From: Alphaproteobacteria bacterium
GTDB taxonomy: Bacteria; Pseudomonadota; Alphaproteobacteria; UBA1280; UBA6503
Assembly (NCBI GenBank): GCA_021774615.1
Contig: JAJFIW010000003.1
Coordinates: forward strand, 7,867-71,866
Direction: 5' to 3'
Length of the DNA: 64,000 nucleotides
Below the pieces are notes generated by a model. It made no database searches, was not told the origin of the DNA, and was given only the letters and a program-made list of their open reading frames with translations. Positions 505 through 61,656 of the stretch are shown here, piece by piece. The stretch's first letter is position 1. Every line of letters starts with the position of its first letter. The translations under genes and the position numbers were made by a program.

Positions 505-612
505 AGCACCTTCGACATTCCGAGTCGCCGCAAGGCGAGAGGTTGTCGACAGTCTGCGGAACGCAGCACCAAGCATCTGGCTTTGCCAGTGCGCAGGTGG
601 ATTAAAAAATTG
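505..612 (-). repeat. about 100-nt structured repeat, copy A; directly abuts the 3' end and T-run of rnpB
   Basis: Minus strand reads ATTTTTTAATCCACCTGCGCACTGGCAAAGCCAGATGCTTGGTGCTGCGTTCCGCAGACTGTCGACAACCTCTCGCCTTGCGGCGACTCGGAATG... It is about 80% identical to 8605-8705 on the plus strand. The first hairpin shows compensatory changes: CTGGC/GCCAG here versus TAGGC/GCCTA in copy B. Confidence 0.5.
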
Positions 613-8710: not shown

Positions 8711-10078
8711 CTAGGCTTGCCATTTCTTAAGCTTACGGTCAAGCGCTGGGCGAGAGATATTTAGAATATCGCAGGTTTTGCCTTTATGGTTACCTGTTGC
8801 TTCTAGAACGTTTAAGATATGCGCTTTTTCTACTTCTTCTAAAGAAATAAGCTGTGTTGAGGCTGTAGGGGCTAGGTCAAGGTCTGTTGTGGCTGCGGCT
8901 GTTGGTAGGTTAGGGTTAATGTCTTCAACGTCTATGTATGCTTGCTGTGCGTGGGCTGCGGCTCTGGTTAAAACGTTCTCTAGCTCGCGGATATTGCCTG
9001 TCCAAGGTTGTGCTTTTAGTTGTGTCATACCATCTAAGGTAATCCCCTTAATGGTTTTACCTAGGCTGTGGTTAATCCGCATTAGTAAGTTGCTTACAAT
9101 CGCGGTGAAGTCAGACATCCGCTCTTTTAAAGTTGGGATGTAAATATCAATAACATCAAGGCGGTAAAATAAATCTTCACGGAACTTGCCCGCCGCTACC
9201 ATTTTGCGTAAATCCCGATGAGTCGCAGCAATAATCCTAGCGTTAGTAGTTAATGTTTTATTGCTACCTACACGCTCAAAGGTTTGCTCTTGTAATACTC
9301 GTAGTAATTTTGCTTGTAAATGTGGCGACATTTCGCCAATTTCGTCAAGGAACAAAGTGCCATTTTCAGCAATCTCGAAACGCCCTTGTTTGGCTTGGTC
9401 AGCACCTGTAAAAGCACCTTTTTCATGCCCAAAAAGTTCGCTCTCGAGCAATGTATCAACAATTGAGGCACAGTTTACAGCAACAAAAGGGCCTTTATGT
9501 TCGCCATGGCTATGAATGGCTTTTGCCACTAGCTCTTTACCTGTTCCTGATGCACCTTGGATAAGTACATTGGCAGTATTTTGGGTGGCAATAGCAATTT
9601 TTTTGCATACTTCAATCATCTCGGCGCTGCTGCCAGTAATTTCAGGGGTAGTATCTTCTTGGGAAGGCGCAGTATTTACCGTAGCTTTTTTAGTGTCAGC
9701 TTTAAGAGCATGGTGAATAATAGTATCAAGCTTTTGTAGGTCTATAGGCTTATGGACATAATCAAAAGCACCTGTTTTCATGGCAGTGATGACTAATTTC
9801 ATATCGTGAAAACCAGTAACCATTACAACTGGCCGCTGGTTGTTGTCTTCCAAGAGCCATTGCAATAATTTTAGACCATTTGTATCGGGCAAGTGTTGGT
9901 CAAGGAGAACAAGCTTACAAGCATTTGTATCTAAAAACTTTTTGGCTTCAGCGCCTGTGTGTGCAATGTGGGTTGTAAGGCCTATATCATCAATGTGTAG
10001 GCTTAGCATTTCAGACAAAGATTCATCATCGTCAATAATTAGAATGTCGCAGGTACTCATTATTGTGGTTGCTCCCAC
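8711..10078 (-). CDS. sigma54-dependent response regulator, NtrC/NtrX family (REC + AAA+ + Fis-type HTH)
   Basis: N-terminal receiver with ILIIDDDES and a phospho-acceptor Asp, an AAA+ domain with GASGTGKE and the ESELFGHEKGAFTGA (GAFTGA) motif, and a C-terminal HTH. Confidence 0.85.
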   Translation of the reverse strand: MGATTIMSTCDILIIDDDESLSEMLSLHIDDIGLTTHIAHTGAEAKKFLDTNACKLVLLDQHLPDTNGLKLLQWLLEDNNQRPVVMVTGFHDMKLVITAMKTGAFDYVHKPIDLQKLDTIIHHALKADTKKATVNTAPSQEDTTPEITGSSAEMIEVCKKIAIATQNTANVLIQGASGTGKELVAKAIHSHGEHKGPFVAVNCASIVDTLLESELFGHEKGAFTGADQAKQGRFEIAENGTLFLDEIGEMSPHLQAKLLRVLQEQTFERVGSNKTLTTNARIIAATHRDLRKMVAAGKFREDLFYRLDVIDIYIPTLKERMSDFTAIVSNLLMRINHSLGKTIKGITLDGMTQLKAQPWTGNIRELENVLTRAAAHAQQAYIDVEDINPNLPTAAATTDLDLAPTASTQLISLEEVEKAHILNVLEATGNHKGKTCDILNISRPALDRKLKKWQA

Positions 10079-13598: not shown

Positions 13599-15056
13599 AT
13601 GAGCAACCTAGCCCACAGCCTAACTGATGACAACACTCGTAAAGATTATGACGAGGTATTGATGAAAATTGCGGATTATGTTTGTGATTTTGTGCCTAGT
13701 TCGACGGAAGATTACGACACTGCTCGTAATTGTTTGATGGACACCCTTGGGTGTGGGTTTTTAGCGTTGAAGTTCCCGCAGTGCCAAGCAATGCTGGGGG
13801 CAGTGGTTGAGGGCGCAGACTTACCTATGGATAAGGGCGGCGTGCCAGTGCCGGGGACTTCCCATACACTTGACCCAATTAAAGCTGCGTTCGACATTGG
13901 CTGCATGGTGCGTTGGCTCGACTATAACGACACGTGGCTTGCTGCCGAGTGGGGGCATCCCAGCGACAACCTTGGTGCAATTTTAGCATCTTGCGACTAC
14001 ATGACCAGAACTGGCAAGAAAAACTATACTGTCCACGATGTGCTTACTTACATGATAAAATCCCATGAAATACAGGGTATTTTAGCACTAGAAAACAGCT
14101 TTAATAAAGTAGGGCTAGACCATGTGGTATTGGTTAAGGTGGCGTCTACTGCTGTTGCAACCCACATTATGGGTGGCACAAAACAACAAGTGCTTGATGC
14201 CGTAAGCCACGCATGGCTAGACGGGCAAAGCCTACGGACTTACCGCCATTCGCCAAATACAGGTAGCCGCAAAAGCTGGGCTGCGGGCGACGCTACCAGC
14301 CGTGCAGTACGCCTTGCATTAATTGTACTAAAAGGCGAAATGGGCTACCCAAGCGTGCTAACCGCACCTACTTGGGGCTTTTATGATGTGTTGTTTAAGG
14401 GTAAAGAGTTTAAATTCCAACGGGAGTTTTCTAGCTACGTAATGGAGAATATTCTATTTAAAATTAGCTTTCCTGCCGAGTTCCATAGCCAAACAGCAGT
14501 AGAAGCTGCGGTAAAACTGCATGATGTAGTTAAAAACCGCCTTGATGATATCGAACGGATTGAGCTAATAACCCACGAGGCCGCAATTCGGATTATTAGC
14601 AAGACTGGTGCACTCCATAACTTTGCCGACCGTGACCATTGCTTGCAATATATGGTGGCAGTGCCACTAATAAAAGGTAACCTTACCGAAGATGACTACT
14701 CGGACGAGGCAGCGTCTAACCCACAAATAGATGTTTTACGAGAAAAAATGGTAGTAAGTGAGGACAAACAATACTCGGTTGACTACCATGACCCCGAAAA
14801 ACGCAGCATTGCTAATGCTATCCAAATTTTCTTTACCAATGGCACAAGCAGCGAAAAAGTAGCGATTGAATACCCAATCGGCCACCGCCGCCGCCGAGAC
14901 GAGGGGATACCAGTGCTAGAAGAAAAGTTTAAACGTAACCTACGAGTTGTTTTTGACGATACCCAAGCCAACAACATTTTCGCACTGTGTAAAGACGTGG
15001 ATAGGCTGAATAAAACACTAGTAACAGACTTTAGCGAGATGCTTATTCGCAGATAA
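13599..15056 (+). CDS. prpD: 2-methylcitrate dehydratase
   Basis: 485-aa MmgE/PrpD-family protein in the prpBCD gene order. Confidence 0.85.
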   Translation: MSNLAHSLTDDNTRKDYDEVLMKIADYVCDFVPSSTEDYDTARNCLMDTLGCGFLALKFPQCQAMLGAVVEGADLPMDKGGVPVPGTSHTLDPIKAAFDIGCMVRWLDYNDTWLAAEWGHPSDNLGAILASCDYMTRTGKKNYTVHDVLTYMIKSHEIQGILALENSFNKVGLDHVVLVKVASTAVATHIMGGTKQQVLDAVSHAWLDGQSLRTYRHSPNTGSRKSWAAGDATSRAVRLALIVLKGEMGYPSVLTAPTWGFYDVLFKGKEFKFQREFSSYVMENILFKISFPAEFHSQTAVEAAVKLHDVVKNRLDDIERIELITHEAAIRIISKTGALHNFADRDHCLQYMVAVPLIKGNLTEDDYSDEAASNPQIDVLREKMVVSEDKQYSVDYHDPEKRSIANAIQIFFTNGTSSEKVAIEYPIGHRRRRDEGIPVLEEKFKRNLRVVFDDTQANNIFALCKDVDRLNKTLVTDFSEMLIRR

Positions 15057-15474
15057 AGCTAACAACACCCCAGCCAAAGTCTTTTTTGACTTCTATTTTT
15101 AGGGGGAGTTCTAAAGTAGGTAGGTGTAGAGTTTGTTCGATAGGTAAGGTTGTAATTACTTGTGCGTAGCTAAATTCTTCAGGTGGGTTATCTATTTCTA
15201 GGGTTAGTACTTCGTCGATAATTCGTAAATGCACAGAATATCCAGGTGACGGCACAACAATTTTACCCCTGGCGTTGATTGCACCGTTCTGAAGGCGGGT
15301 TAATGACAGGCTGTTCTCGTCTTGGGCATGGTCTGGGGTGCAAATTGCAGTTTTTGTTTGTGCCATTACTATAGGCGCAACATACCAGCTACTTAAAAAA
15401 ACAAATGCTAGCAAAAACCTAGTCAATACAGACCTTGTAGCGTGATGTTCTGGCACTTGCAGGTTGTGGTGCAT
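15043..15474 (-). CDS. hypothetical secreted protein
   Basis: Signal-peptide-like segment ...FLLAFVFLSSWYVAPIVMA and two Cys residues. The start is uncertain because it overlaps the tail of the next ORF. Confidence 0.4.
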   Translation of the reverse strand: MHHNLQVPEHHATRSVLTRFLLAFVFLSSWYVAPIVMAQTKTAICTPDHAQDENSLSLTRLQNGAINARGKIVVPSPGYSVHLRIIDEVLTLEIDNPPEEFSYAQVITTLPIEQTLHLPTLELPLKIEVKKDFGWGVVSFICE

Positions 15475-15715
15475 AAACCTTTGGCTGGATAGATGCAGTG
15501 CGTTGTTGCTGCATTCTCTTATTTTTTAATTGCTGCTGTTTTGACGGTTTTATACGGTGCCCGTTAGATGTATAAGTACTTATATAAGTAGGTGCAATAG
15601 CACGTACTGCTTGTGGCTGTGCATCACTACAGCGTACTTTCATGGCATTGGCATTGGGGGTTACAAAGCCAACCATAGCAATGGTTACAATAATAATTAC
15701 GACTAGGTTCTTCAT
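15419..15715 (-). CDS. small secreted Cys-pair protein, paralog A
   Basis: Signal peptide MKNLVVIIIVTIAMVGFVTPNANA, then MKVRCSDAQPQ..., a basic Q-rich middle, and a C-terminus of YKVCID. Confidence 0.5.
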   Translation of the reverse strand: MKNLVVIIIVTIAMVGFVTPNANAMKVRCSDAQPQAVRAIAPTYISTYTSNGHRIKPSKQQQLKNKRMQQQRTASIQPKVYAPQPASARTSRYKVCID

Positions 15716-15747
15716 TTTAAGCTCTTATCTTGGAATGTTTAAATAAA

Positions 15748-16062
15748 TTAGTTGTTACAAACTTTGTAGTTAAGGTTTTTCTGGTCTGCAATCTCAAATT
15801 TCATTGGTGCGTAGCTGTCTTGAGGTTGCGTGGTACCTTTTTTACGGGCTTGTTCTCTATTCTTGCGCTGTAAATCTTTTTTCTCTCTAAGAGTAAGCCT
15901 GTTATTAGCTTTTCTTTCGGCAGCAGGGATTATATTAACGTTACCATTTGTTGTACGTGTTTGTGGGTCGCTACAACGTACTTTTAAGGCAGAAGCATCA
16001 GGGATAGAAACCATAGTAGCAATGGCTACGGTAACAATTGTAAGTATAATTTTGCTTCTCAT
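15748..16062 (-). CDS. small secreted Cys-pair protein, paralog B
   Basis: Signal peptide MRSKIILTIVTVAIATMVSIPDASA, then LKVRCSDPQT..., ending NYKVCNN. Same architecture as 15419-15715. ATG at 16062 preferred over the track start. Confidence 0.5.
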   Translation of the reverse strand: MRSKIILTIVTVAIATMVSIPDASALKVRCSDPQTRTTNGNVNIIPAAERKANNRLTLREKKDLQRKNREQARKKGTTQPQDSYAPMKFEIADQKNLNYKVCNN

Positions 16063-16140
16063 AATTTTGCCTCTAAATAAATATGTAAAATCCAATAACG
16101 CCTCATACATGGGGATGATTTATTATTTTTCAAGTGGTAG

Positions 16141-27559: not shown

Positions 27560-27904
27560 ATGACATTTGTGGTGACAGAAGAATGCATTAAATGCAAATA
27601 CACCGATTGCGTAAGCGTATGCCCTGTGGATTGCTTTTATGAGGGTGAAAACATGTTAGTTATTGACCCTGACGAATGCATAGACTGCGGTGTATGCGAG
27701 CCAGAATGCCCTGTAGAAGCTATTAAAAGCGATGAAGAGCTTGCCGCTGGTGAAGAGAAATGGCTGGTATTAAATACTAAATACTCAGCTTTATGGCCAA
27801 ACCTTACAGTAGCAAAGGCTGCACCTGCTGATGCTGATGAATGGGCGGAGAAAAAAGACAAGGCTGGTGAGTTCTCAGAAAAGCCAGGTGAAGGAAACCT
27901 TTAA
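27560..27904 (+). CDS. fdxA: 7Fe ferredoxin (FdxA type)
   Basis: [55 protein letters not shown] carries the CxxCxxxCP + CxxCxxCxxxCP cluster ligands. AAGGAATA RBS upstream. Confidence 0.85.
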
Positions 27905-29025
27905 AGGCTCTTATATAACTTATGATAAGCTTGGAGCATCTTCCCCAGAGAAAACTCTTTACGGACATAAGCCCTAGTATTAATAGAGCGACCTTGGCGG
28001 TATGATGGGTCATCGAGTAGTTTATCAAAGGCTTGTTTTGCTAAAGGGTTGTTGGGGTATAAAACCACACCACAACGGTTACCATTACTAAGCATTAAAG
28101 CATTTGCTGATGGCGCTAAAATAACTGGTAAGCCTGCGCTTTGTGCTTCTAAAATAGTAGTGTGGCGTTCTTCTATTCCACCTAGTAATATAAAAACGTC
28201 AGATGCTTTAAGGTATTCTTCAGGGTTATCTACGGCATCAATAAAATGTACAAAATCAGTCATTCTGTGCTGGGTTATAGATTTTTTTAGTTGTCTAATG
28301 TATTGTTTATCGGTGACTTTTCCAATAAAAAATAAGTGTTTACCTTCTGATAAAGGCAAACATTTTTCTAGTGTCTCTAGTTGGGCGTTATCTGGGTTTA
28401 TTTCAGCCATACAGCAAATAAGCGTTGCTTTTTCAGGTAAGCCTAATTCGCGCCTTATTGGGCGTTTTGATAATACAGGCTTAAACTGTTCGGTCTGGAT
28501 ACCGTAAGGAATATAAGCAACGTCTGACAAATTTTGTTTTCTGGCTGTCTCGAGTAAATTATTACTGCTAACAATCAATGGTTTAGATGCAAGAAGGGCT
28601 TTTTTATGAAGGCTTTTCTGCCAAAAATTTAGGGCATCCCCTGTAATGTCTTGTTCAGAGTTTGCATTAGAAATGGTTGGGATTTGTAATTTCTCAGGTA
28701 CCTTTGCAAGGAGACTGTAAGGCCATTTGCAACAAGTAAAATGTACAATATCAACAGTATGGTCTTTTGAAAGATATTTTTTAAGACGGCGCCGCATGTG
28801 TAGTGGCTGCTGAACAATATTAGGGAACCAACCATTTTTCTTGTTTATATGGATAGTGTTAATATTAGGGTGGATATTGTTAAGAGGGCTAGTGTTGACT
28901 TGCCCCACCATGATACTAACTTGTATTTCTGCAGCTGCAAAGGCAAGCGCTAACGTACCTGTTTGTTTTATCAGGTTAAAGTTATTTCCATCGGGGCATA
29001 CAAACAAAATGTGTAGTTTATCCAT
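27901..29025 (-). CDS. glycosyltransferase family 4 (GT-B fold)
   Basis: 374 aa with the C-terminal [14 protein letters not shown]... E-x7-E-like donor-binding region typical of GT4 enzymes. Confidence 0.7.
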
Positions 29026-29119
29026 CGAGGTGGAGAATAGCAGCCCGTAATCTATTCTACAATTGATTATTGGGGGGAATTTTATTATCCTGCAATTATA
29101 TAATAAAAAGGTTATCCAA

Positions 29120-29749
29120 ATGACAATTTCTGCTCAAGACTTCCGCCATTTTGCACATGATAGTTTAAACTATGTTGGGCGCATTCAAAGTGTGTCAGAC
29201 TTACTTGCATCTGATGATGAGGTAGATGCCGCTGAAAAGGCTCTTATCGAGCAAATAATTAATAAAGATGGGGCTAATATTACCAAAGCAATTCGTTTAT
29301 TTTGTTGGTGGGGGTGGGCAAGCTCAAAGCCAACATTGGAGATGTCTCAAATAGACCTAGCAATTACCATACAAGAGCTAATCCTAACCCACGCCGAGGA
29401 GAGGGTTAATACAGACATTGCTACTAATTTGCCAGAGATTAAAGCTGAAAAACAATTACTAGAAACTATATTCATGGAGCTTCTAAATAATGCTCTATTG
29501 CATCGAGAAGCCGAGTCAGAAGTTTCGCTAAAGCTAGAAAATACAGCAGGCGGAATTGCTTTATCTATTAAAAATAAAATAGTAACCCCACCACCACCAG
29601 ACTTCGAAAAACCATTTATTAAACAAGATGGTAGCACTGGTATGGGGATTGGTCTTGCCATGGTGGCAGCATCTACAGAATTATTCGGCATGCAGTTTAC
29701 TACCAAAGTTGAGGATGACAACTTTGTAGCACGGATTGTTATTAAATGA
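29120..29749 (+). CDS. minimal soluble histidine kinase (HisKA H-box + HATPase_c), orphan
   Basis: H-box FRHFAHDSLNYVGRI, N-box LLNNALLH and G-box GMGIGLAM; about 210 aa with no sensor or TM domain. ATG at 29120 with AAAGG upstream preferred over the track start. Confidence 0.55.
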   Translation: MTISAQDFRHFAHDSLNYVGRIQSVSDLLASDDEVDAAEKALIEQIINKDGANITKAIRLFCWWGWASSKPTLEMSQIDLAITIQELILTHAEERVNTDIATNLPEIKAEKQLLETIFMELLNNALLHREAESEVSLKLENTAGGIALSIKNKIVTPPPPDFEKPFIKQDGSTGMGIGLAMVAASTELFGMQFTTKVEDDNFVARIVIK

Positions 29750-29766
29750 AGTAGTATAAATTATTA

Positions 29767-29795
29767 AAGCCCAGCATTAGATGCTGGGCTTTAAT
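29767..29795. terminator. bidirectional Rho-independent terminator
   Basis: AAAGCCCAGCATTAGATGCTGGGCTTT. Confidence 0.5.
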
Positions 29796-29812
29796 AGTAA
29801 AACGTTAATAAG

Positions 29813-30058
29813 CTATTCTTTTTTCGGGAAGCATGCTTCCCGATGCTCAGGTTTGAGGTGTTCAACCTCAACCATTTCGCAAATCTTTGCTGTTGTTCTA
29901 TCTTCATGGGCATATTCCCAATACACCCAACTTACTGCATGGAACATGCCTATAATAAAGGCTATTCCAAGAGCTATGGATGCTAAGTTGATGCCGATTT
30001 TTTTTACTAAAGCTTCATTTCGGGCTAGTTTTGCTAAAGCTTCGTCTCGTGTAGACAT
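29813..30058 (-). CDS. hypothetical small membrane protein
   Basis: 81 aa with one hydrophobic helix (INLASIALGIAFIIGMFHAVSWVYW). No identifiable motif. Confidence 0.35.
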   Translation of the reverse strand: MSTRDEALAKLARNEALVKKIGINLASIALGIAFIIGMFHAVSWVYWEYAHEDRTTAKICEMVEVEHLKPEHREACFPKKE

Positions 30059-30156: not shown

Positions 30157-31986
30157 CTACTCAACCGTAACCGACTTTGCGAGGTTTCGTGGTTGGTCAA
30201 CGTCAGTGCCTTTAATTACGGCCACATGGTAAGCTAGTAATTGTACTGGTAGTGCCATTAGAATTGGGGCAACAAATGGGTGGGCATCAGGGGTAATAAA
30301 TTTACCGCCGCTCATTTCTCCTGCTGTATCAGCAGCTGTTTTATCTGAGAGTAAATATACTCTGCCTTTTCTGGCTTGTACCTCGTGGATATTAGAGAGT
30401 GTTTTTTCTAGTAGCGCGCCACCAGTTGCTAATGCAATAATTGGCATTTTCTCGTCTACTAGGGCAATTAAACCGTGCTTCATTTCGCCAGCGGCAGCAC
30501 CTTCGGCGTGGATATAGCTAATCTCTTTTAACTTTAATGCGCCTTCTTGGGCAATGGGGAACAACGAATTGCGCCCTAAGTACAAGGCTGATGTTGCTGG
30601 TGCAATGGCTTCCGCCATTTCTAAAATTTCATTTTCTTTGTCTAAAATTTGCATCATCCGCTGTGGTGTTTGGATAAGTGCTTGTAGTAGGCTATGGCGA
30701 GTTTTATCGTCGAGCTTGCCCTTTGCTTCAGCTAGCTTAATTGCAAATAGTGCTAGCACTACTAGTTGGGTGGTAAACGCTTTGGTAGATGCCACGCCAA
30801 TCTCAGGGCCAGCAAAAGTTGTTAGTACTCCGCTAGCTTCTCTTGCAATAGTACTAGTTGGCACGTTTACAAGGCCTAAGGTGTGTTGGTTTTGTTCTTT
30901 AGCAAGCTCTAGCCCTGCAAGTGTGTCAGCAGTTTCGCCGCTTTGGGATATAAAAATACTAAGGCTATTTTTTATAAAAGGTGGCTTACGGTAGCGAAAC
31001 TCTGATGCTACATCTACATTAACTGGTGTGTCTGCTAATTCTTCAAACCAATAGCGGGCTACCATTGCTGCATAAGACGATGTACCACAAGCAATTAGGT
31101 TTATTTGCGCTATGTCGGCAAGGTTAAAAGGCATATTTGGTAATATAATATCTTGGTGGTTATCGCTAAGGTAGGCTTCAAGTGTTTTACTAATAGCATG
31201 TGGTTGTTCGTGGATCTCTTTAAGCATAAAATGCCGATAACCATCTTTACCAGTAATACTTGCCGATACATCTACAATGTTTTCTTGGCGAATAATTGTT
31301 TTGCCATCTGGGCGGTAAATTTTAATTTCATCGGTGCTTATAACTGCAATGTCATCGTTATCAAGATAAGTAATTTTATTGGTAAAAGGTGCTAAGGCAA
31401 TGGCGTCTGATGCAATATAGTTTGTACCATTCCCACGACCTGCTAAAAGAGGGCTACCACGGCGAGCAGCGAATAAAGTATTTGGTGTTTTATTAAAAAC
31501 AACCCCTAAAGCAAATGCACCCTCAACTTGGTTTAAGGTTTTAATAACAGCATCAAGCTCGTTCATACCATTTTTTAGGTTTTCGCTAATAAGAATTGGC
31601 AAAACTTCGGTATCAGTCTCAGACTTGAAAATATGCCCTTTAGCAATAAGTTTATCTTTAATCTCTTGGTAGTTTTCGATAATGCCATTGTGTACTACAG
31701 CGCATTTTTCAGACATATGGGGGTGGGCATTTTCTGTGGTTGGCTCACCATGGGTTGCCCAACGGGTGTGGCCAATAGCTAAAGAGCTACCTGCAGTAAA
31801 GGGGTTTTCAATAAATGCTTGCTTAAGGTTTAGTAATTTACCAACTCGGCGTGTTACGTCTATATTACCATTATGGATAGTGGCAATCCCAGCCGAGTCG
31901 TAACCACGGTATTCTAGCCGTTCTAAGCCAGTTAGAACATCATCGGTTGGATGGTCTGAACCTACAACACCAAAAATCCCGCACAT
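30157..31986 (-). CDS. glmS: glutamine--fructose-6-phosphate aminotransferase
   Basis: Starts MCGIFGVVG (N-terminal Cys nucleophile) and ends ...VDQPRNLAKSVTVE, both GlmS hallmarks. ATG at 31986; the track shows an upstream TTG. Confidence 0.9.
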   Translation of the reverse strand: MCGIFGVVGSDHPTDDVLTGLERLEYRGYDSAGIATIHNGNIDVTRRVGKLLNLKQAFIENPFTAGSSLAIGHTRWATHGEPTTENAHPHMSEKCAVVHNGIIENYQEIKDKLIAKGHIFKSETDTEVLPILISENLKNGMNELDAVIKTLNQVEGAFALGVVFNKTPNTLFAARRGSPLLAGRGNGTNYIASDAIALAPFTNKITYLDNDDIAVISTDEIKIYRPDGKTIIRQENIVDVSASITGKDGYRHFMLKEIHEQPHAISKTLEAYLSDNHQDIILPNMPFNLADIAQINLIACGTSSYAAMVARYWFEELADTPVNVDVASEFRYRKPPFIKNSLSIFISQSGETADTLAGLELAKEQNQHTLGLVNVPTSTIAREASGVLTTFAGPEIGVASTKAFTTQLVVLALFAIKLAEAKGKLDDKTRHSLLQALIQTPQRMMQILDKENEILEMAEAIAPATSALYLGRNSLFPIAQEGALKLKEISYIHAEGAAAGEMKHGLIALVDEKMPIIALATGGALLEKTLSNIHEVQARKGRVYLLSDKTAADTAGEMSGGKFITPDAHPFVAPILMALPVQLLAYHVAVIKGTDVDQPRNLAKSVTVE

Positions 31987-31990
31987 GGTA

Positions 31991-32758
31991 TTATGCCTCT
32001 TTTTTAACAAGGCAGCGTTGCTGGTAAATGGCTTCTGCTTCTTTTAATTGGCTTGGAGAGTTAACCCCTAATAATGCAAGCCCATCATCAACATGCAAAG
32101 TGTTTACGGCTAAGCCTCGGTCGCTAGCTAAAGCAATAATATCGGTAAGGTAAAACTCGCCACTGGCATTATCGTTAGATACATCTTTTAATAATTCAAA
32201 AATTAGGGGTGCTTTTACCATGTAAATCCCTGTGTTGATCTCATGGATTTGGCGTTGGGTTTCACTAGCGTCCCTATGTTCAATGATTTTTTTGAAATTA
32301 CCATTCTTATCGCGGATAATTCTACCAAGGCCTGTAGCATCATCAAGAGTGGTCGTGAGTACGGTAATAGCTTCGTTTTTAGAAATATGTTGAGTTTGCA
32401 AGTTTCTAACAAGGTGTGGCGTTACTAGCGGTACATCACCACTAAGGATGATTACATCACCAACAAAACCTTTAAGAGCTTGTTCTGTTTGTTGTACGGC
32501 GTGGCCTGTGCCTAATTGCTCGGCTTGGTACGCAAATTTAACTCCAGGGAAAGTAGCAGCAACATTACTTTTAACAGCATCTGCCTGATGGCCTACAATC
32601 ATAACAATTGGCTCTAGCCCTTTTGCAGCTTCTAGTACGTGGTGCACCATTGGGGTGTCTGCTAATGGGTGTAATACTTTAGCAAGGTCAGACTCCATAC
32701 GGCGCCCTTTGCCACCAGCAAGTACAATAACAGCTGTTGGGTGGTTTGATGTATTCAT
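31991..32758 (-). CDS. glmU: UDP-N-acetylglucosamine pyrophosphorylase: GlmU N-terminal uridyltransferase domain only, LbetaH acetyltransferase domain absent
   Basis: AVIVLAGGKGRRMESDLAKVLHPLADTPMVHHV..., QAEQLGTGHA, LSGDVPLV, EHRDASETQRQIHEINTGIY and GEFYLTDIIAL are collinear with the GlmU pyrophosphorylase domain (established family knowledge). The protein stops after the linker helix at residue 255. The glmS ATG follows 4 nt later. Confidence 0.8.
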   Translation of the reverse strand: MNTSNHPTAVIVLAGGKGRRMESDLAKVLHPLADTPMVHHVLEAAKGLEPIVMIVGHQADAVKSNVAATFPGVKFAYQAEQLGTGHAVQQTEQALKGFVGDVIILSGDVPLVTPHLVRNLQTQHISKNEAITVLTTTLDDATGLGRIIRDKNGNFKKIIEHRDASETQRQIHEINTGIYMVKAPLIFELLKDVSNDNASGEFYLTDIIALASDRGLAVNTLHVDDGLALLGVNSPSQLKEAEAIYQQRCLVKKEA

Positions 32759-32887
32759 ATAATTATCTATTTCCTATACTTTATAAAAAACGTGTTGGCA
32801 TCATACCGCACTGGAAGATTATTTTAAACATTAAACCCACTATTGTTGACAGCGTACTATAGGTTGTGCGATAAAATCAGGAGATAT

Positions 32888-33018
32888 AGTCAATTCTGGT
32901 TCAAACTGAATTGACTATGACTACAAGCCATCTTGTAGTCCATTAGCGAGTCTAAATGTAGCTTTGCTGCATTTTAAACGAGTGTAGTGCAATTTCAAAT
33001 GTGTAGCATTTGAAATTG
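32888..33018. promoter_or_regulatory. cluster of three perfect palindromes upstream of the methyltransferase gene (candidate operators)
   Basis: AGTCAATTC-N11-GAATTGACT (32888-32916), CTACAAG-N4-CTTGTAG (32921-32938) and CAATTTCAAAT-N7-ATTTGAAATTG (32990-33018). Confidence 0.3.
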
Positions 33019-33046
33019 ATATTTATATAATTAATGGTAGGTTGCA

Positions 33047-33637
33047 ATGCATCAGCACACACAAGATTACTACAATACAAACGCAGAAGAGTACTCCAAG
33101 CGGACATTAGCTATTAGTATGTCGGATGAGATTGACAGATTTGTTCCATATTTAAAGCATGGGGTAAGTATTCTTGATATTGGCTGCGGCTCTGGGCGAG
33201 ACTTACAAGCATTTGCAGATAAAGGCTTTGATGCTGCAGGTGTAGATGGCTCTAAAGAAATGTGCCAAATTGCTCGCCTTTTTACAGGGCGCAGGGTTTA
33301 TAACTACAAGTTTGAAGATTTCACCCCACCACGCCAATTTGATGGTCTTTGGGCTGGTGGCTCGCTAGTGCATACCCTAGATACTGACCTACCTGCATTG
33401 TTAACCAAAGTCTGGTCATGGTTAAAGCCGGGTGGCGTAATGTACGCCTCATTTAAAGATAGTAACGCCGCAGGTGTCGCAGCAGATGGCCGCTTTTTTA
33501 ATGGCTTTTCTCTTGACGAGCTAAAGCAATTATTTAGTACCCTTGAAGGTGTAGAAATTGTAGAAGTGTGGTCGGCTGCATCAAAAGTTAAAGAAAAAAT
33601 GTGGCATAACATTATTCTCCGTAAGAAAATATCATAG
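33047..33637 (+). CDS. class I SAM-dependent methyltransferase
   Basis: ILDIGCGSGRDLQAFADKGFDAAGVDGSKEM is a Rossmann-fold motif I (GxGxG) followed by an acidic motif II residue. 196 aa. Confidence 0.7.
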   Translation: MHQHTQDYYNTNAEEYSKRTLAISMSDEIDRFVPYLKHGVSILDIGCGSGRDLQAFADKGFDAAGVDGSKEMCQIARLFTGRRVYNYKFEDFTPPRQFDGLWAGGSLVHTLDTDLPALLTKVWSWLKPGGVMYASFKDSNAAGVAADGRFFNGFSLDELKQLFSTLEGVEIVEVWSAASKVKEKMWHNIILRKKIS

Positions 33638-34419: not shown

Positions 34420-36555
34420 TTAAAATTTGAAAGATGCCTTAACTTGCCCAGTATGGCTTAAAAATTCGTCTTTAATCTGGGCATCATAACCAAATTGCAG
34501 AGTTATCATTTTATTTGCCGACTCAAAAGTAAAAGACGTACCTAGGTTAAGCGATTCTTCAGCTATTTGTACCTGTTGGTCAGACACAAACGCGCCACCA
34601 CCAAAAGCACGAGTGCTTTGTACTTCATCGCTAGCAAAGTCGTACATTAGGTTGGCATGTATTTCGGGGCGGTATGTATTCATATTGTATTTGTATGACC
34701 CCTCTAACCTAGCACCTATTTTACCTACCAAGGAATTTTTACTAGAGATAAGGTCTTGCACAGTGTTTACATTATCGCGCAGGGTAACTTTATCTTTGGT
34801 AATATGGGTGTAGTTTAAACCAGCCTCTGGGATAATATAAGTAGTATTTGCTACGTTAAACTTTTTACCAAACTTAATGTCAGCTCCATATTGATTGGTC
34901 GAGTAATCCCCCGACATCCGCCCAAAACCAAGTACATTTTGTGCTGTATTAACATCGTTAATACCAAAATGAACTGACCCTGTTATAAATGAGTCATCTA
35001 TTGTTTTGTCGCCATATAAAGCTAAAATATAGGTATTAACTTTAGCGTCAGAGTTTGCAAAGCTTTCGCCATTAATATCGGCATAGTTATAGCTAAATGC
35101 TAAGCCTGCACGGGTCCCTGTAGTAACTTCGTTATCGTAACCAATTGTGCCGCCAATGCTGTTGGCCTCGTAGCCTGCAATTCCTTTGCGTGCTCCTTGG
35201 TCAAGGGTGCTTGCAGTGCCTTGGAACCACATTTTATTATTTGCAGTAATATCACCTGCAGAAACACCTAAACTACCACCTCGTAAACTAGCAAGGCGAT
35301 TAGCAATACTTGTAGTAGTCACATGGAAAACTTCTGTCGCAGCATTGTTAATAGCACCTGCAACAACGTTTGCATCCCCTAGTTTGCCTACAGCTTCTTG
35401 AATTTGGGAGGGCGTACCAGCAACAGCAGTGTTTATAGCAGTTTGAACCGTAGCAGGAAGAGTAGCACCACTAGTAAGTTGGATTATTTTACCTGCATCA
35501 GTAGTGCTAACGCCTAAAGTTGTAGCAATTTGAGTTGTTGGTTTAGCAGCTCCTGCTGTAATTTCAACATTGGTACCATTAACAGCAACTGTGAAATTAC
35601 GAAACAAGTTATCAGCGTTAATGTTAGCTACATTTTCATCGGCATTACCAACTAGGTTATCAACTAGCACAACTGTCCCTGAACCAAAAGCAACATCAGG
35701 AATAACTGCAACATTACCTGTCATGTTTAAGGTTGTGCCTGTAAATACAGTTGTTGCATTAATAAATCCATCGCCAAGGTTAAGAGTACCCGTTTGTAAA
35801 GCAACGCTTGATAGGTCAACAGTTCCATTAAATGAAGCCGATGCCGCAGGGTTAGAAATATTAATTGTACCTGAATTATTTAGTATGCTTCCTGCCGTAA
35901 TGCCGTAAGTTCCTGCAGTTAGGTTGCCATTATTATTTATAATAGTGTTTGAAGTGGTAGCTAATGAATTTACAATAGAGGTTGTTCCACCAAGATCAAT
36001 CTGAGCAACAGCTGTAGCTGAATTACCAACCAAAGTAATACCTCCAGTTGTAATATCTCCTGAGACTAATAACGATGCATCTTTATCTGCTATTGTATTA
36101 TTAGATATAATAGTAATAAATCCTTCTCCAAGGTTTAGATCACCAGTAACATCAACAATAATGTCACTATTAGCTGCACCAAACCCACCTATTGCGGCTA
36201 TAGTTAAATTTAAATCCTGTCCAGTAGCTGCATTAATATTACCAATAACTTGTAAGGTTTGTGGCATAGCTACAGCTGATTGTAGTATGCTTAGGGATGA
36301 TGGCCCTGTATTGAAAAGCGTATTAATAGCATCAGGATCAACAGCTGTTTCACCAACAGTTCTATTGTTATCTATAAATATGGTTTCACCAGCGCCTGTA
36401 ATATTTAAATCTTTATTCTCATCACCAGCAATAAGTGGGGAATTAACAGCGAGCATCGCATCATCTACAACATCAGCAAAAGCTATGCTTGGCAAAGTGC
36501 TTATACCAATAAGAGCTGTTGTTGCTAGCAGTAGTGGCATTTGCTTAATTTTCAT
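34420..36555 (-). CDS. autotransporter (type Va) outer-membrane protein with T/N/G-rich passenger
   Basis: Signal peptide MKIKQMPLLLATTALIGISTLPSIAFA, a repetitive T/G/N/A-rich passenger of about 400 aa, and a C-terminal beta-barrel translocator ending ...GQVKASFKF (terminal aromatic residue). Confidence 0.75.
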   Translation of the reverse strand: MKIKQMPLLLATTALIGISTLPSIAFADVVDDAMLAVNSPLIAGDENKDLNITGAGETIFIDNNRTVGETAVDPDAINTLFNTGPSSLSILQSAVAMPQTLQVIGNINAATGQDLNLTIAAIGGFGAANSDIIVDVTGDLNLGEGFITIISNNTIADKDASLLVSGDITTGGITLVGNSATAVAQIDLGGTTSIVNSLATTSNTIINNNGNLTAGTYGITAGSILNNSGTINISNPAASASFNGTVDLSSVALQTGTLNLGDGFINATTVFTGTTLNMTGNVAVIPDVAFGSGTVVLVDNLVGNADENVANINADNLFRNFTVAVNGTNVEITAGAAKPTTQIATTLGVSTTDAGKIIQLTSGATLPATVQTAINTAVAGTPSQIQEAVGKLGDANVVAGAINNAATEVFHVTTTSIANRLASLRGGSLGVSAGDITANNKMWFQGTASTLDQGARKGIAGYEANSIGGTIGYDNEVTTGTRAGLAFSYNYADINGESFANSDAKVNTYILALYGDKTIDDSFITGSVHFGINDVNTAQNVLGFGRMSGDYSTNQYGADIKFGKKFNVANTTYIIPEAGLNYTHITKDKVTLRDNVNTVQDLISSKNSLVGKIGARLEGSYKYNMNTYRPEIHANLMYDFASDEVQSTRAFGGGAFVSDQQVQIAEESLNLGTSFTFESANKMITLQFGYDAQIKDEFLSHTGQVKASFKF

Positions 36556-37035: not shown

Positions 37036-37962
37036 TTATATTGTGACTTTTTCGTCAAGAGTAAGGGTGGTCTTATTGGTTCCAACACTAAGGGTTGCTT
37101 GTGCACCTAGAGGGAAGGTTGCCATGTGTTTGCCGTGGCCACAGGGGGCATTGCCTACAATCGGCAGGTCTCGACCTTCGGTTAACTCTTGGATAACATC
37201 ATGGAGGTGTAATACGTAAGGGGGTGTTCCGTCGGTAGAGTCATTAATATCGGTTAACTCGCCAACTATAACCCCTTTAACATTTTGTAGTTTGCCAGCA
37301 CGGTGCAAATGCCATATGAGGCGGTCTACTTTGTATAGTTCTTCGCCAATATCTTCGATAAATAATAAAGTGTTATCGGTAGAAAAATCGTGTTGTGTAC
37401 CAAGTAGAGTACTTAATAAACTTAGGCTGCCACCAATTAGCTGCCCACTAGCTGTACCTGTTGCAAGGGGTATAGCCTCGGGGAAGGTAAGCTCGGGCTG
37501 CTTCCCTGCTGCAACTGCCATAAAGTGGTTAAAAGAATATTCGTCACTCTCTTGAAAGCTGGTTAACATTGGGCCGTGGAAAGTTGTTAGGTCTGTTTCA
37601 GACTCGATTGCATGTAAAAGTAGGGTTACATCGCTATAGCCACAAAAGAATTTTGGATTATATCTAATAATATCATAGTCAATATGGTGCTCGGTGCGCA
37701 TACAGCCGCTGCCACCACGAGTGCACATAATGCCGTCAATTTCTGGGTCTTCGAACATATCCATTAAAGCTGCAGCTCGTTCTATGTCGGTACCTGCAAA
37801 ACGATGGTGGTTGGCAAAACATTGAGGGTGAACCACAACGTTAAAGCCATGAGCTTCTAATTCGGTAACGCCACGCTTTATTTCGTCATCAGCCATGCGC
37901 GAGCCCGGCGAGACAATACCCACCGTGCTCCCCACATGTAATGATTTTGGCTTAATAAGCAC
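37036..37962 (-). CDS. LD-carboxypeptidase (peptidase S66)
   Basis: LHVGSTVGIVSPGS N-terminus, with the Ser/His/Glu-containing regions at typical S66 spacing (GYSDVTLL, ...GHGKHMATFPLG). Confidence 0.75.
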   Translation of the reverse strand: MLIKPKSLHVGSTVGIVSPGSRMADDEIKRGVTELEAHGFNVVVHPQCFANHHRFAGTDIERAAALMDMFEDPEIDGIMCTRGGSGCMRTEHHIDYDIIRYNPKFFCGYSDVTLLLHAIESETDLTTFHGPMLTSFQESDEYSFNHFMAVAAGKQPELTFPEAIPLATGTASGQLIGGSLSLLSTLLGTQHDFSTDNTLLFIEDIGEELYKVDRLIWHLHRAGKLQNVKGVIVGELTDINDSTDGTPPYVLHLHDVIQELTEGRDLPIVGNAPCGHGKHMATFPLGAQATLSVGTNKTTLTLDEKVTI

Positions 37963-57694: not shown

Positions 57695-58309
57695 TTATCC
57701 TAAAATAAAGAATATCATATCCATGAGTGGTTGTTGTAGAGTAACCATAACCCATAAGCCAATGCTTAGCCCAAAGCCAAAGGGAATAGCCTGCCCACGT
57801 GGTATTACTAGCGATAATACTAGGTTGCTCATAAAAGCAATTGCAAGTGCAAAGGGTAGTGCTGGTAAGCCCACCCATGCGCCTAGTACGGCAAGCATTT
57901 TTACATCGCCAAAGCCTAAGTCACCTTCACCTTTGTGCAAAGCTTTAAGGATAAGGTCTATCACAACTCCAATGCTAGCAGCTACCAATATACCAAGTAT
58001 ACTTTCGATGATTGTAACTTCTAGAATTAAAGGCGCATAAATCAGACCTAAAATTAAGAGAGGGATAGTATAGATATTTAGAAGTAAAAAATGGCATAAA
58101 TCAACAGCAGTCATCCGCCCTAGTAGTACTGCAATTGGTATAAGTAATATAGACTGTAGTGCTGTTAATCCACCATAAATAAACCCTGCCAATAAAAGGC
58201 TACAAAGCCCAACACTTAATAATGCCCAAGCTCGATTTATAAAGCGTACAGGTAGTATGCCGTCGTCAATTTCCTCAGGCAGCACATACCTTTTTTCTAG
58301 TTCCCACAT
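57695..58309 (-). CDS. A24-family prepilin peptidase, short form with no N-terminal Zn/methyltransferase domain
   Basis: Multi-pass membrane protein with the two catalytic Asp motifs (RMTAVDLCHF and GEGDLGFGDVKMLAVLGAWVG). About 200 aa, so comparable to the TadV/CpaA-type. Confidence 0.75.
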   Translation of the reverse strand: MWELEKRYVLPEEIDDGILPVRFINRAWALLSVGLCSLLLAGFIYGGLTALQSILLIPIAVLLGRMTAVDLCHFLLLNIYTIPLLILGLIYAPLILEVTIIESILGILVAASIGVVIDLILKALHKGEGDLGFGDVKMLAVLGAWVGLPALPFALAIAFMSNLVLSLVIPRGQAIPFGFGLSIGLWVMVTLQQPLMDMIFFILG

Positions 58310-58335: not shown

Positions 58336-59376
58336 TTATGGGCAGTTTGTGACATAGCTAATTTTAACTGTAAATGGTGCTTTTAGCACATTATTATAGT
58401 TTGATCTGTAGCATAATCTCCTTAGATCTGGGAATGTATTATATTTTGAGGGTGGTAGGTTTAATAAAGTAAGTAAATCACTATCGTTAACCTCGTCTAG
58501 CTCTGGCGCAACTGCTGCTCTTCCATGAGGGATATAATAATAATTATTTGGTGCAATAACCCCGTCATTAGCATCATGAATAGAATTAGGGAAATAATTT
58601 AGATTTTGCTCCTCCCCAGGCTGGTAAGCACCATCATTATTAAAGTCACAACGAGGGTGTAATAATTCTGGGTTTGCAGTTGTGGCACAGAATATTTTAT
58701 TTTCAATACGAAGAGTTCTCTCGTACTCTTGGAGACGTTTTTGTACGGTTGCAGCTCTTCTATGAGTTTCTAGTGCAGCTTTCTTAACATGTTCAATTGT
58801 AGAGAATTTAACACCAATATCATCACTCATAGGTTTCCAGTTTGTATAATCTGTAATACAGTTAGCTTCAGTATCTTTTCTTAGTATTACACTAGTAGTA
58901 CCGTCATCAGAGCTAATTCCCGAGTCATAGTTTTTATCAGGTCCAGAAGAGTATATAACTACATTATCAACACCAAATAATGTCCCTCCCACATTAATAG
59001 TAGTGTTGCACATACCGAACATCCAGTCATGTCCCCAAGGGTCTTTCTCTAAGGATGAATCCTTTAGATAGTCAACGTCATTTCCTGTAACAACTCTTCC
59101 ATTTACCCAGTCCCTAAGGTTAACTGTAGTCCTAGGTATTAATACGGTATAATTAACGAAATTAGTCCTATCAATGCCTGGGGTAGAAATAAACATTTCT
59201 TCAAGGGCATCAGCTATTTTTTGTACGCCAATATCTGATGACTCAACCCGATTTTTTTCTATTTTACTAACTACTTGTGTTCCGACAACACCAGCCAATA
59301 CACTTACAATTACAAGGGCAACACGAGTGTCCATCGAGAACATCGCACCTCTTTGTGAAGACAGTAATTTAAACAT
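58336..59376 (-). CDS. large prepilin-like protein (class III signal peptide), paralog 1
   Basis: Leader MFKLLSSQRG followed by AMFSMDTRVALVIVSVLAGVVGTQVV (a basic residue + Gly cleavage context, then a 22-aa hydrophobic helix). A Cys-rich C-terminal half shares blocks with the next ORF (DDIG.KFSTI, PRCDFNNDGAYQ.GEE, PNNYYYIP.GRAA). Confidence 0.5.
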   Translation of the reverse strand: MFKLLSSQRGAMFSMDTRVALVIVSVLAGVVGTQVVSKIEKNRVESSDIGVQKIADALEEMFISTPGIDRTNFVNYTVLIPRTTVNLRDWVNGRVVTGNDVDYLKDSSLEKDPWGHDWMFGMCNTTINVGGTLFGVDNVVIYSSGPDKNYDSGISSDDGTTSVILRKDTEANCITDYTNWKPMSDDIGVKFSTIEHVKKAALETHRRAATVQKRLQEYERTLRIENKIFCATTANPELLHPRCDFNNDGAYQPGEEQNLNYFPNSIHDANDGVIAPNNYYYIPHGRAAVAPELDEVNDSDLLTLLNLPPSKYNTFPDLRRLCYRSNYNNVLKAPFTVKISYVTNCP

Positions 59377-59394
59377 TATATTACTATTCCTTGT

Positions 59395-60432
59395 TTATGG
59401 TGTTGGGCAAACTGCCGCATAACTTAATTTAATTGTAAAAGGGGACTGCATATTGCCAGTACGGTTTGACTCGTAGCACAATAATTTACCCCATGGGTCA
59501 GTTGCATAGCTTGCATCTAGACCTAAAGAAATAACAAAAGCTTGCATGCCTGCAAGGTTAAATGCTACATCACCAACCTCGGTACCAGCTGCTGCTCTGC
59601 CATAAGGTATATAGTAATAATTGTTTGGAGGTACCGCTGTATCTACTGTATCAGTAGCCGAACGAGGGAAATAATTTGACCCTATTTCTTCACCTGTTTG
59701 GTAGGCTCCATCATTATTAAAATCGCAGCGTGGGTTTAAAGTCTCAGGGTTTAGTGTAGTAGAACAAAAATCTTGGTTTTCCATAACTTTTGTTGCTTCA
59801 TATGCTTGTAAGGATTCTTGTATAATAATAAGCTTATTCTTCATTTCAGTAATATAAGCTCGCTCAATATCTATAGTGCTAAATTTCATACCAATATCGT
59901 CATTAATTGTGTTCCAAGCTGCAAAATTTGCTACACAAGTAGCATTAGCAAGGATATCACCTGTTCCAGAACTAAGTGTTCGGTCTGGGCCACCAGAATA
60001 TATAACGGCATAATGTACGGTTACTTGAACTCCTTCAATAGTTTGTGTAGCTACACATTTATCAAACGCCCAAGTTTGCCCCCAAGGCTCTTCTACTAAG
60101 GCTGCAGATACTAACCCTGCGTCTATAACTCTGGTTTGGTAGCTACCTAAACCTGTATTAAAGTTAGTTGGTAGAGGGACCAGGGCTGTGTGGCCAGCAG
60201 GTAAACCATTAAGAGCAGTTACAGTAGGTTGAGATTTATAATAGGTCTCAAGCCCATCAACAAGTGCACTTACACTAATTTCGGCTGCTTCTACCCGATT
60301 ACGCTCAACCTTTTGGATAACCTGAGTCCCCACTACGCCAGCTAGCACGCTTGCAATTATTAATGCAATCCGAGCGTCCATCGAGAACATCGCACCTTTT
60401 TGTAGTTTTATTAGGTTTTCAATCATCTTCAT
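59395..60432 (-). CDS. large prepilin-like protein (class III signal peptide), paralog 2
   Basis: Leader MKMIENLIKLQKG then AMFSMDARIALIIASVLAGVVGTQVI. C-terminal conserved Cys-containing blocks are shared with 58336-59376. Confidence 0.5.
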   Translation of the reverse strand: MKMIENLIKLQKGAMFSMDARIALIIASVLAGVVGTQVIQKVERNRVEAAEISVSALVDGLETYYKSQPTVTALNGLPAGHTALVPLPTNFNTGLGSYQTRVIDAGLVSAALVEEPWGQTWAFDKCVATQTIEGVQVTVHYAVIYSGGPDRTLSSGTGDILANATCVANFAAWNTINDDIGMKFSTIDIERAYITEMKNKLIIIQESLQAYEATKVMENQDFCSTTLNPETLNPRCDFNNDGAYQTGEEIGSNYFPRSATDTVDTAVPPNNYYYIPYGRAAAGTEVGDVAFNLAGMQAFVISLGLDASYATDPWGKLLCYESNRTGNMQSPFTIKLSYAAVCPTP

Positions 60433-60447
60433 GCCTTTTTATAAGAG

Positions 60448-61656
60448 TTAATTACCTTTTCTAACGCAACGTGTATTGATACCTAGGCTGCCTTTACCAG
60501 ACTGATAGATAAGCCCGTCACCGAAAGATACTGTGTTTGCAGCACTGTCAGTAGCTTCAGTTGATGTCCAGTATAATTCCCAATCGGTAAATCCACCAAT
60601 AGTGGCTTTGTTTGTATAAAGAGTGCTTAGTTCATTTCTTGATGGTAAGTACCAGTCATCAAAACCATTTAAAACAAGGTTGTGGCATAGTGCTGCTACT
60701 GGGTATTTGGCTGCACCAAGCCCTATATAAGTATCAGTATTTGCTGCACCATCTAGTAGGCTAGTTGCACCAGTTATAACATTCTCAGTAGAAAATACAG
60801 GTGTGCCTGCTTCATCTTGTTCTGCAGATACTAAAGCACCTACACCAGCTGCAAGGCAAATGCCTCCTTGGGCATTGTTGCCTAGGCCTGCACATGAATC
60901 TGGCATTACTATAACGTTATCCATATTCATCGGTACAGTTAAAACTTGTGCCCATGGGGTTGTAGCTTGAAGCTGCGCTATGTTGTCTGAAGTAATAGCA
61001 TAGGTAAATGCTCCTCCCCAGAAATCAGTAGTACTTGATTGTGCTGCAATAGCGGGGTATTCTACAAGTGTTGGGAATCTACCATTCTTTCCCCAGAACG
61101 AATATAATATTTCAGAATATTTTTCCATTCTATCTATAGTTTCTGCAATTTGCTTAGTTCTAATTCCAGATGTATCAATGGTTATAACATCATCACGATT
61201 GTTTATTGTGTCAGCTGCCATTGCAGCTGCATCACCAGCAGTTTCTAGAGCAGTTATTTGTGTGCGAACAAGGTTGTCATCACTTGTTGAAATTATAATT
61301 TGCTGAGAATTGGTACCAACATCTGTTGTAATTGTACCTATAGCAATATTTTGACCAGACCTAGTGCCACCACCAATACTTTTTGCAACAAAGCTATTAA
61401 TAGCGTTGGTATCAACAGCTCCAAATGTACCTGTTGTTTCTGCCATTAGTGCGCCTTCAACGGCTCTTCGGTAAGTATCAGCTGTTTCTTTTGAACGCTG
61501 CTCTTGCTGCTCTTGGATACGCTTCATTTCTAGGTCTGCTTGTATTTTTATACCACCAGAAAGCACTGCCACACCAGCAAGCATACCAAATAGGAACGGA
61601 GAAACCGCCCCTCTTTGACGCACAATAGCGCATTTAATGTAATTTATTAGATCCAA
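60448..61656 (-). CDS. prepilin-like N-terminus fused to a C-terminal DUF1566 (Lcl C-terminal) domain
   Basis: Leader ...IVRQRG then AVSPFLFGMLAGVAVLSGG. C-terminus DWYLPSRNELSTLY...WELYWTSTEATDSAANTVSFGDG...INTRCVRKG matches the DUF1566 consensus (W.LP...EL..L ... YWSST ... VRCVR). Confidence 0.55.
   Translation of the reverse strand: MDLINYIKCAIVRQRGAVSPFLFGMLAGVAVLSGGIKIQADLEMKRIQEQQEQRSKETADTYRRAVEGALMAETTGTFGAVDTNAINSFVAKSIGGGTRSGQNIAIGTITTDVGTNSQQIIISTSDDNLVRTQITALETAGDAAAMAADTINNRDDVITIDTSGIRTKQIAETIDRMEKYSEILYSFWGKNGRFPTLVEYPAIAAQSSTTDFWGGAFTYAITSDNIAQLQATTPWAQVLTVPMNMDNVIVMPDSCAGLGNNAQGGICLAAGVGALVSAEQDEAGTPVFSTENVITGATSLLDGAANTDTYIGLGAAKYPVAALCHNLVLNGFDDWYLPSRNELSTLYTNKATIGGFTDWELYWTSTEATDSAANTVSFGDGLIYQSGKGSLGINTRCVRKGN

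Follow-up and report, generated by a model that had tools for sequence, protein, structure and literature searches.

The locus described here lies in a 64-kb window of alphaproteobacterial DNA (by the window we mean the whole stretch that was analysed). It holds a short glmU gene, which we term glmU-N, followed directly by glmS on the same strand. Its features, by position in the window, are:

31991..32758 (-), glmU-N: stand-alone protein of 255 aa made up of the GlcNAc-1-P uridylyltransferase domain and the linker helix, without the left-handed beta-helix (LbH) acetyltransferase domain
31987..31990 (-), spacer of 4 nt between the glmU-N stop codon and the glmS ATG (sequence reading)
31996..32001 (-), Shine-Dalgarno-like AAGAGG for glmS, within the last glmU-N codons, 9 nt before the glmS ATG (sequence reading)
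30157..31986 (-), glmS: complete glutamine--fructose-6-phosphate aminotransferase, 609 aa (NCBIfam PRK00331)
29813..30058 (-), small ORF of 81 aa, 3' of glmS, with no family match
29762..29796 (-), strong terminator-like hairpin of 16 pairs after the 81-aa ORF (consensus scan only)
32759..33046, divergent intergenic region between glmU-N and the methyltransferase gene, with sigma-70-like matches on the minus strand (e.g., 32849..32821)
33047..33637 (+), class I SAM methyltransferase, 196 aa, divergent from glmU-N

The short gene encodes GlmU cut down to its uridyltransferase domain

The product of 31991..32758 is a GlmU cut down to the uridyltransferase domain and the inter-domain helix. Pfam detected nucleotidyltransferase domains only in the 255-aa product, and no Hexapep repeats. 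The product matched eleven GlmU equivalog models of NCBIfam (E 1e-52 to 1e-78), yet always over profile positions ~1-245 of ~450 only, and it scored below every full-length cut-off of these models (e.g., 262 bits against 366.85 for TIGR01173, and 262.3 bits against 450 for PRK14354). In comparisons with solved structures, its alignment covered residues 3-242 of E. coli GlmU and residues 5-243 of the S. pneumoniae protein (E 1e-49 to 1e-53). Since the linker helix of E. coli GlmU spans residues 230-250 (PMC10087520), the protein stops at the end of this helix. Its AlphaFold2 model (pLDDT 94) likewise terminates in a long helix, at residues 235-254, and superposes on the GlmU N-domain with an rmsd of 1.4 A and a TM-score of 0.92 by the query, but of only ~0.5 by the target.

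These profile and structure alignments, together with the model, agree with an earlier sequence-only reading of this DNA, which had identified the ORF as the GlmU N-terminal domain from five motifs (all of which are found in the 255-aa translation) and had placed its end after the inter-domain helix, at residue 255. That reading had also stated that the LbH domain is missing and that a frameshift, merging the ORF with an LbH-encoding frame downstream, was unlikely. Both statements were borne out by a search with an HMM of the GlmU C-domain, run on the six frames of the window and of four further loci (L002, L005, L019 and L013): none of the six window frames gave an LbH hit (best E 0.44), whereas the control locus, L013, yielded a partial LbH at 5e-24. 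A frameshifted or split gene was rejected on these grounds.

glmU-N and glmS probably form one transcription unit

The TAA stop codon of glmU-N occupies 31993-31991 and the ATG of glmS 31986-31984, which leaves the 4-nt spacer that had been noted from the sequence. The glmS gene is complete (789 bits against a PRK00331 cut-off of 381, aligned over 1-609), and its dN/dS is 0.04-0.12 in pairs of the clade described below. AAGGAG stands at the place of the Shine-Dalgarno-like AAGAGG in two of the orthologues (UBA6503 and L026). As the last codons of glmU-N contain the putative glmS ribosome-binding site, the two genes appear to be co-transcribed and are probably translationally coupled.

The 81-aa ORF that follows glmS is possibly the operon's last gene; it is not conserved in the relatives, which have DUF805 genes there instead. 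The hairpin behind it is the probable end of the transcription unit. Upstream of glmU-N, the promoter scan gave 13 sigma-70-like matches against 9.6 +/- 3.3 expected, i.e., not above chance, and we claim no promoter in 32759..33046. An Rfam scan found no glmS ribozyme in the window, as expected in a proteobacterium. The sole Rfam family in the window was RNase P RNA of bacterial class A (608-957, minus strand), which is complete (314 bits).

The N-only architecture is conserved across a clade

An independent Logan assembly of SRR15505519 contains an identical glmU-N/glmS pair. Among the species-representative genomes, the nearest is 'Proteobacteria bacterium UBA6503' (L002); it encodes a 253-aa orthologue of 63% identity, with glmS 2 nt after its stop codon and the same neighbours, and four metagenomic loci (L024, L026, L031 and L032) carry orthologues that are 61-65% identical to the window protein. 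Together with the window these make up a clade of six assemblies/species, in all of which glmU-N encodes 249-271 aa, ends in a stop codon and is followed by glmS 2-20 nt downstream. Alignment to the GlmU of related genomes had been proposed as a check from the sequence alone; within the clade, the same N-only architecture upstream of glmS recurs in all six.

The C-terminal tail QRQLxAKGA is common to UBA6503 and L026, and the tails of the window protein (QRCLVKKEA) and of L024 are related to it but diverged. In the least saturated pair (L002 vs L026, dS 0.84) the dN/dS of glmU-N was 0.098, and in the other non-saturated pairs it was 0.08-0.19; by this measure glmU-N is under purifying selection (dN/dS ~0.1). 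These data bear on whether the short gene could be an artefact or a recent pseudogene, produced by a frameshift or deletion in one assembly. All that speaks for this is the prior that truncated genes in metagenome-assembled genomes (MAGs) are often errors. Against it stand the same architecture in six assemblies/species, the tail shared by UBA6503 and L026 and its related forms in other orthologues, the dN/dS ratios, and the lack of an LbH remnant in any window frame, and we give it practically no weight. An assembly error was rejected, as the same junction occurs in the independent Logan assembly and in five other species.

The active site is retained

In glmU-N the signature region L-x2-G-x-G-T-x-M-x4-P-K reads LAGGKGRRMESDLAK, with R20 and K27 conserved and with variants at G15, R19 and A26. 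We compared 27 columns that are at least 85% conserved in full-length GlmUs and also in other, unrelated short GlmUs. All ten clade members are identical at 26 of them, which take in the catalytic Arg and Lys along with the residues that bind uridine, Mg2+ and the sugar; the sole deviation is A15G, in the window protein alone. Residues R20, K27, Q78, G83, T84, D108, G145, E160, N175 and N233 are invariant in the ten. The last eight we take to be Q76, G81, T82, D105, G140, E154, N169 and N227 of E. coli GlmU, a map based on alignment offsets and on the known structures. Judged by this conservation, the active site of glmU-N is intact. Neofunctionalisation of the active site was rejected, there being no clade-specific change at any GlmU-invariant column.

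Of note, residues 13-21 of the window protein (32696-32722, minus strand) read LAGGKGRRM, where all relatives, including those of its own clade, have LAAGKG(T/S)RM. The window protein has G15 for an otherwise invariant Ala and R19 for Thr/Ser in the nucleotide-binding loop.

The acetyltransferase domain was most likely lost in place

A sister lineage, represented by two loci (L021/L022), retains a full glmU of 440 aa with Hexapep domains, likewise followed by glmS. Its gene order is uvrB, rpsD, YkuD, secretin, x, DUF1294, glmU (full), glmS, and the two closest full-length GlmUs (P0010 and P0018; 440 aa) each share a contig with a UvrB relative of 67% identity. UvrB itself places the organism of the window among uncultured Alphaproteobacteria. 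The window shows the same backbone and orientations, with an orthologous secretin (50% identity) and DUF1294 (37%), and differs from the sister lineage by the insertion of PutA, LdcA, an autotransporter and the methyltransferase. In a neighbour-joining (NJ) tree of 135 N-domains, the short clade was monophyletic in 100/100 bootstraps. Its sister group included these two full-length GlmUs in 68/100, and the short form of a Rickettsiaceae MAG (L019) in 0/100.

Because the syntenic sister lineage keeps a 440-aa glmU before glmS, and the NJ tree agrees, the LbH domain was most likely deleted in place from the lineage's own glmU. This loss is most likely separate both from the Rickettsiaceae short form and from the ~245-aa family of Chlorobiales, Syntrophales, Nitrospinae and others. 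Transfer of the widespread FCB-type short GlmU is disfavoured by synteny and by the NJ tree, in which the sister support is only 68%. We infer that one ancestral truncation, absorbed into the translation signals of the operon, would explain the shared tails and Shine-Dalgarno sequence.

The methyltransferase gene adjoins glmU-N in five of the six clade loci, the sixth (L032) being too short to show it. As it is not at that position in the sister lineage with full-length glmU, its insertion and the loss of the domain fall at the same point of the phylogeny. The methyltransferase has no evident functional link to glmU-N.

Where the GlcNAc-1-P may come from

Taken as a whole, the data are probably best explained by a functional, monofunctional uridylyltransferase that arose by in-place loss of the LbH domain and is served by acetylation in trans. 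By this account, an ancestral glmU-glmS operon would have lost the C-terminal LbH acetyltransferase domain in place, leaving a gene that stops at the end of the inter-domain helix and whose last codons would serve as the glmS ribosome-binding site. GlmS would still make GlcN-6-P de novo, a putative separate acetyltransferase encoded elsewhere in the genome would carry out the N-acetylation in trans, and the glmU-N product would convert GlcNAc-1-P and UTP to UDP-GlcNAc (the EC 2.7.7.23 half of GlmU). This activity and substrate are predicted on two grounds, namely the conservation of the active site and the activity shown for GlmUCc, the enzyme of Capnocytophaga canimorsus (PMC4358021). The trans-acting acetyltransferase, both its existence and its identity, is a prediction of the proposed pathway.

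The sequence-only reading had named a separate acetyltransferase or an import of GlcNAc phosphates as the two possibilities, which is a reasonable inference. De novo synthesis with acetylation in trans is favoured over import or salvage because glmS is intact, coupled and constrained, and because the window does not suggest an obligately intracellular life. Its genes include those of c-di-GMP enzymes, a sigma-54 regulator, prpBCD (methylcitrate cycle), PutA, LdcA and a pilus secretin, a set that is unlike that of a strongly reduced parasite and suggests a free-living type. An intact glmS is, however, no proof of a complete de novo route, since Capnocytophaga combines an N-only GlmU and inferred GlmS activity with GlcNAc auxotrophy (PMC4358021). 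Neither the 64-kb window nor the relatives' loci of ~11-20 kb contained a GNAT or hexapeptide acetyltransferase, glmM, nagA or nagK; such nearby partners were rejected after Pfam or NCBIfam searches of 54 window ORFs. Three neighbours are conserved, the class I methyltransferase, a GT4 glycosyltransferase and a HATPase-like orphan protein, with no acetyltransferase among them. Our more specific proposal is tentative: the clade may make UDP-GlcNAc de novo by an acetylation other than that of GlmU, either by a GNAT acting on GlcN-6-P and then a mutase, as in eukaryotes, or by a novel GlcN-1-P acetyltransferase.

Alternatively, glucosamine phosphates might not be N-acetylated at all, the short GlmU only activating salvaged GlcNAc-1-P; GlcNAc or GlcNAc phosphates would then be supplied by a host, by glycans or chitin in the environment, or by the cell's own peptidoglycan turnover. 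Such a life would resemble that of bacteria with the same domain loss, for which import has been proposed (Rickettsia, PMC5615194) or auxotrophy shown (Capnocytophaga, where it coexists with inferred GlmS activity, PMC4358021). Moreover, the genes of the window include those of the peptidoglycan-recycling enzyme LdcA and of an autotransporter whose barrel shows a weak rOmpA-like match, and the largest contig of UBA6503 is ~1 Mb, so a host-associated lifestyle is possible. Yet in each of the six loci glmS is intact and tightly coupled, and purifying selection on it is stronger than on glmU-N, which one would hardly expect if GlcN-6-P could not be turned into UDP-GlcNAc; in Rickettsia, on the other hand, the upstream pathway is missing (PMC5615194). 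The window and the relatives' loci contain no GlcNAc transporter, kinase or GlcNAc-phosphate mutase, and the gene content of the window looks free-living. On balance, we consider dependence on salvage rather unlikely, though the Capnocytophaga precedent gives it real weight.

Two further alternatives concern what else the genome or the enzyme might do. Some bacteria carry a full-length GlmU plus separate truncated domains (bioRxiv 10.64898/2026.06.23.733835), and a normal bifunctional glmU elsewhere in the genome would render the short gene redundant or specialised. The short gene, however, stands directly before glmS in the ancestral glmU position, in synteny with the sister lineage's full-length gene, and groups as its orthologue (68/100 bootstraps), while no full-length protein among the best 120 homologues is closer than 49% identity; a role as accessory paralogue is thus quite improbable. 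A C-domain relocated elsewhere in the genome is unlikely as well, given that the event was most likely an in-place deletion and not a fission. As for the enzyme, it could uridylylate GlcN-1-P, and the resulting UDP-GlcN could then be N-acetylated by another enzyme, an order in which E. coli GlmU can work, if with greatly reduced efficiency (PMC10087520). However, the clade has kept every sugar-pocket residue that does not vary among the GlmUs that use GlcNAc-1-P, with no sign of respecialisation. We know of no precedent for a UDP-GlcN-first route as main pathway, and of the routes considered here it seems the least likely.

Other features of the window

Several other genes of the window drew our attention. 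An LdcA-type muramoyltetrapeptide carboxypeptidase (Peptidase_S66; 37036-37962, minus strand) indicates peptidoglycan recycling, which is relevant to a possible salvage of amino sugars. At 34420-36555 (minus strand) lies the gene of the 711-aa autotransporter, whose beta-barrel shows a weak match to the rOmpA model of Rickettsia; the gene separates DUF1294 from the methyltransferase in the window genome only, none of the relatives having this insertion.

On the other side of glmS, 29063-29749 (plus strand) encodes a protein whose match to sensor histidine kinases is limited to their C-terminal HATPase part, and which has no sensor or transmembrane region. Proteins of this kind (~201-228 aa) are found beside glmS in four clade loci, namely the window, L002 (13041-13652), L024 (3435-4040) and L026 (8816-9433). 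The HATPase-like gene is followed by that of the conserved GT4 glycosyltransferase (374 aa, 27901-29025).

Three tandem paralogous ORFs of 346, 345 and 402 aa occupy 58336-61656 (minus strand). Their N-terminus, ...(K/R)GAMFSMD(A/T)R(I/V)AL(I/V)I(A/V)SVLAGVVGTQV..., resembles a prepilin-type leader with a hydrophobic helix, and they have no Pfam match except for an Lcl C-terminal domain in the third. They are adjoined by the gene of a short type IV leader peptidase (Peptidase_A24, 204 aa; 57695-58309, minus strand). Three adjacent small ORFs at 15043-16110 (minus strand; 143, 98 and 120 aa) have apparent signal peptides and no family match, and the motif MKVRCSD(A/P)QPQ is common to two of them; they may represent a lineage-specific family of secreted proteins.

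Implications

GlmU is treated as an essential, universal and bifunctional antibiotic target, and each independent loss of its acetyltransferase half shows another bacterial way to GlcNAc-1-P. The case described here adds an in-place loss, independent of the others, in a non-Rickettsiales alphaproteobacterium that keeps glmS in the operon. These two properties, the retained glmS and the in-place loss, argue for an alternative acetyltransferase more than for dependence on a host. If acetylation in trans is indeed what serves glmU-N, the N-only clade and its syntenic, LbH-keeping sister lineage would offer a clean phylogenetic-profiling contrast for the missing hexosamine N-acetyltransferase, which is equally unexplained in Chlorobi, Bacteroidetes and Planctomycetes. 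Alone, the finding leaves current understanding unchanged, because the phenomenon has been published for several phyla; its added value is modest and lies in the comparative handle given by an N-only GlmU, an operonic glmS and a syntenic sister lineage.

Comparison with known GlmU systems

The sequence-only reading had called bacterial GlmU almost universally bifunctional. This proved overstated: ~106 of the best 120 database relatives of glmU-N, from many phyla, are stand-alone proteins of 230-270 aa, and N-only cases have been published. Many of the short relatives are not truncated gene calls, as the contigs that carry them measure tens to hundreds of kb. N-only GlmU as a phenomenon is therefore already on record in several phyla, and the clade is a further, independent example.

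With the bifunctional GlmUs of E. coli, S. pneumoniae and M. tuberculosis (TIGR01173), the window protein shares 38-44% identity in the N-domain over the superposed region, a superposable fold (rmsd 1.4-2 A), the catalytic and uridine- and sugar-binding residues and the inter-domain helix; its gene also lies upstream of glmS, as in proteobacterial glmUS operons. What it lacks is the entire ~200-aa LbH domain, which in those proteins provides GlcN-1-P acetyltransferase activity and trimerisation.

The closest parallel within the Alphaproteobacteria is Rickettsia, whose GlmU is also cut to the uridyltransferase domain, without the C-terminal acetyltransferase domain, and for which import of host GlcNAc-1-P has been predicted (Driscoll et al. 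2017, PMC5615194). A similar short GlmU of ~261 aa is encoded by L019, from an uncultured Rickettsiaceae MAG. Whereas a host-dependent pathway of the Rickettsia type would imply the absence of glmS and glmM, the window clade has a complete glmS, under strong purifying selection, directly behind glmU-N in a shared operon, and the genes of the window do not point to an obligately intracellular life.

GlmUCc of C. canimorsus (Ccan_15070) sets the functional precedent for N-only enzymes: this naturally monofunctional GlcNAc-1-P uridylyltransferase is essential and produces UDP-GlcNAc in vitro (Renzi et al. 2015, PMC4358021). C. canimorsus has no GlmM and is a GlcNAc auxotroph in which GlmS activity is inferred, and the N-only architecture was found in 30/45 Bacteroidetes genera (PMC4358021). 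GlmUCc is, however, very divergent from bifunctional GlmU, with 27% similarity to its closest bifunctional relative (PMC4358021), while the window protein is a typical GlmU N-domain.

N-only GlmUs have further been described in Chlorobaculum limnaeum (PMC7725333) and in Polystyrenella longa, for which it was concluded that 'an unidentified acetyltransferase' must exist (bioRxiv 10.64898/2026.06.23.733835); both resemble the window clade and pose the same acetyltransferase question. Of the GlmU of Planctopirus limnophila, the N-domain alone is essential (PMC10632474). The short GlmUs of Chlorobiales, Syntrophales, Nitrospinae and others (~245-255 aa) match the window protein in length and domain content at 45-51% identity and raise that question too, but they are found with pan and tRNA-modification genes, in place of the glmS of the window clade, and by the NJ tree are of separate origin. 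In one Chlorobiales locus (L030, MAG GCA_052746635.1), a 201-aa GNAT (8738-9343) starts 6 nt beyond the end of a stand-alone GlmU-N of 243 aa, with the gene of a PGM/PMM-type mutase 6.6 kb downstream. The GNAT of this one locus, which has no counterpart at the loci of the window clade, may be a candidate for the missing hexosamine acetyltransferase of organisms with an N-only GlmU.
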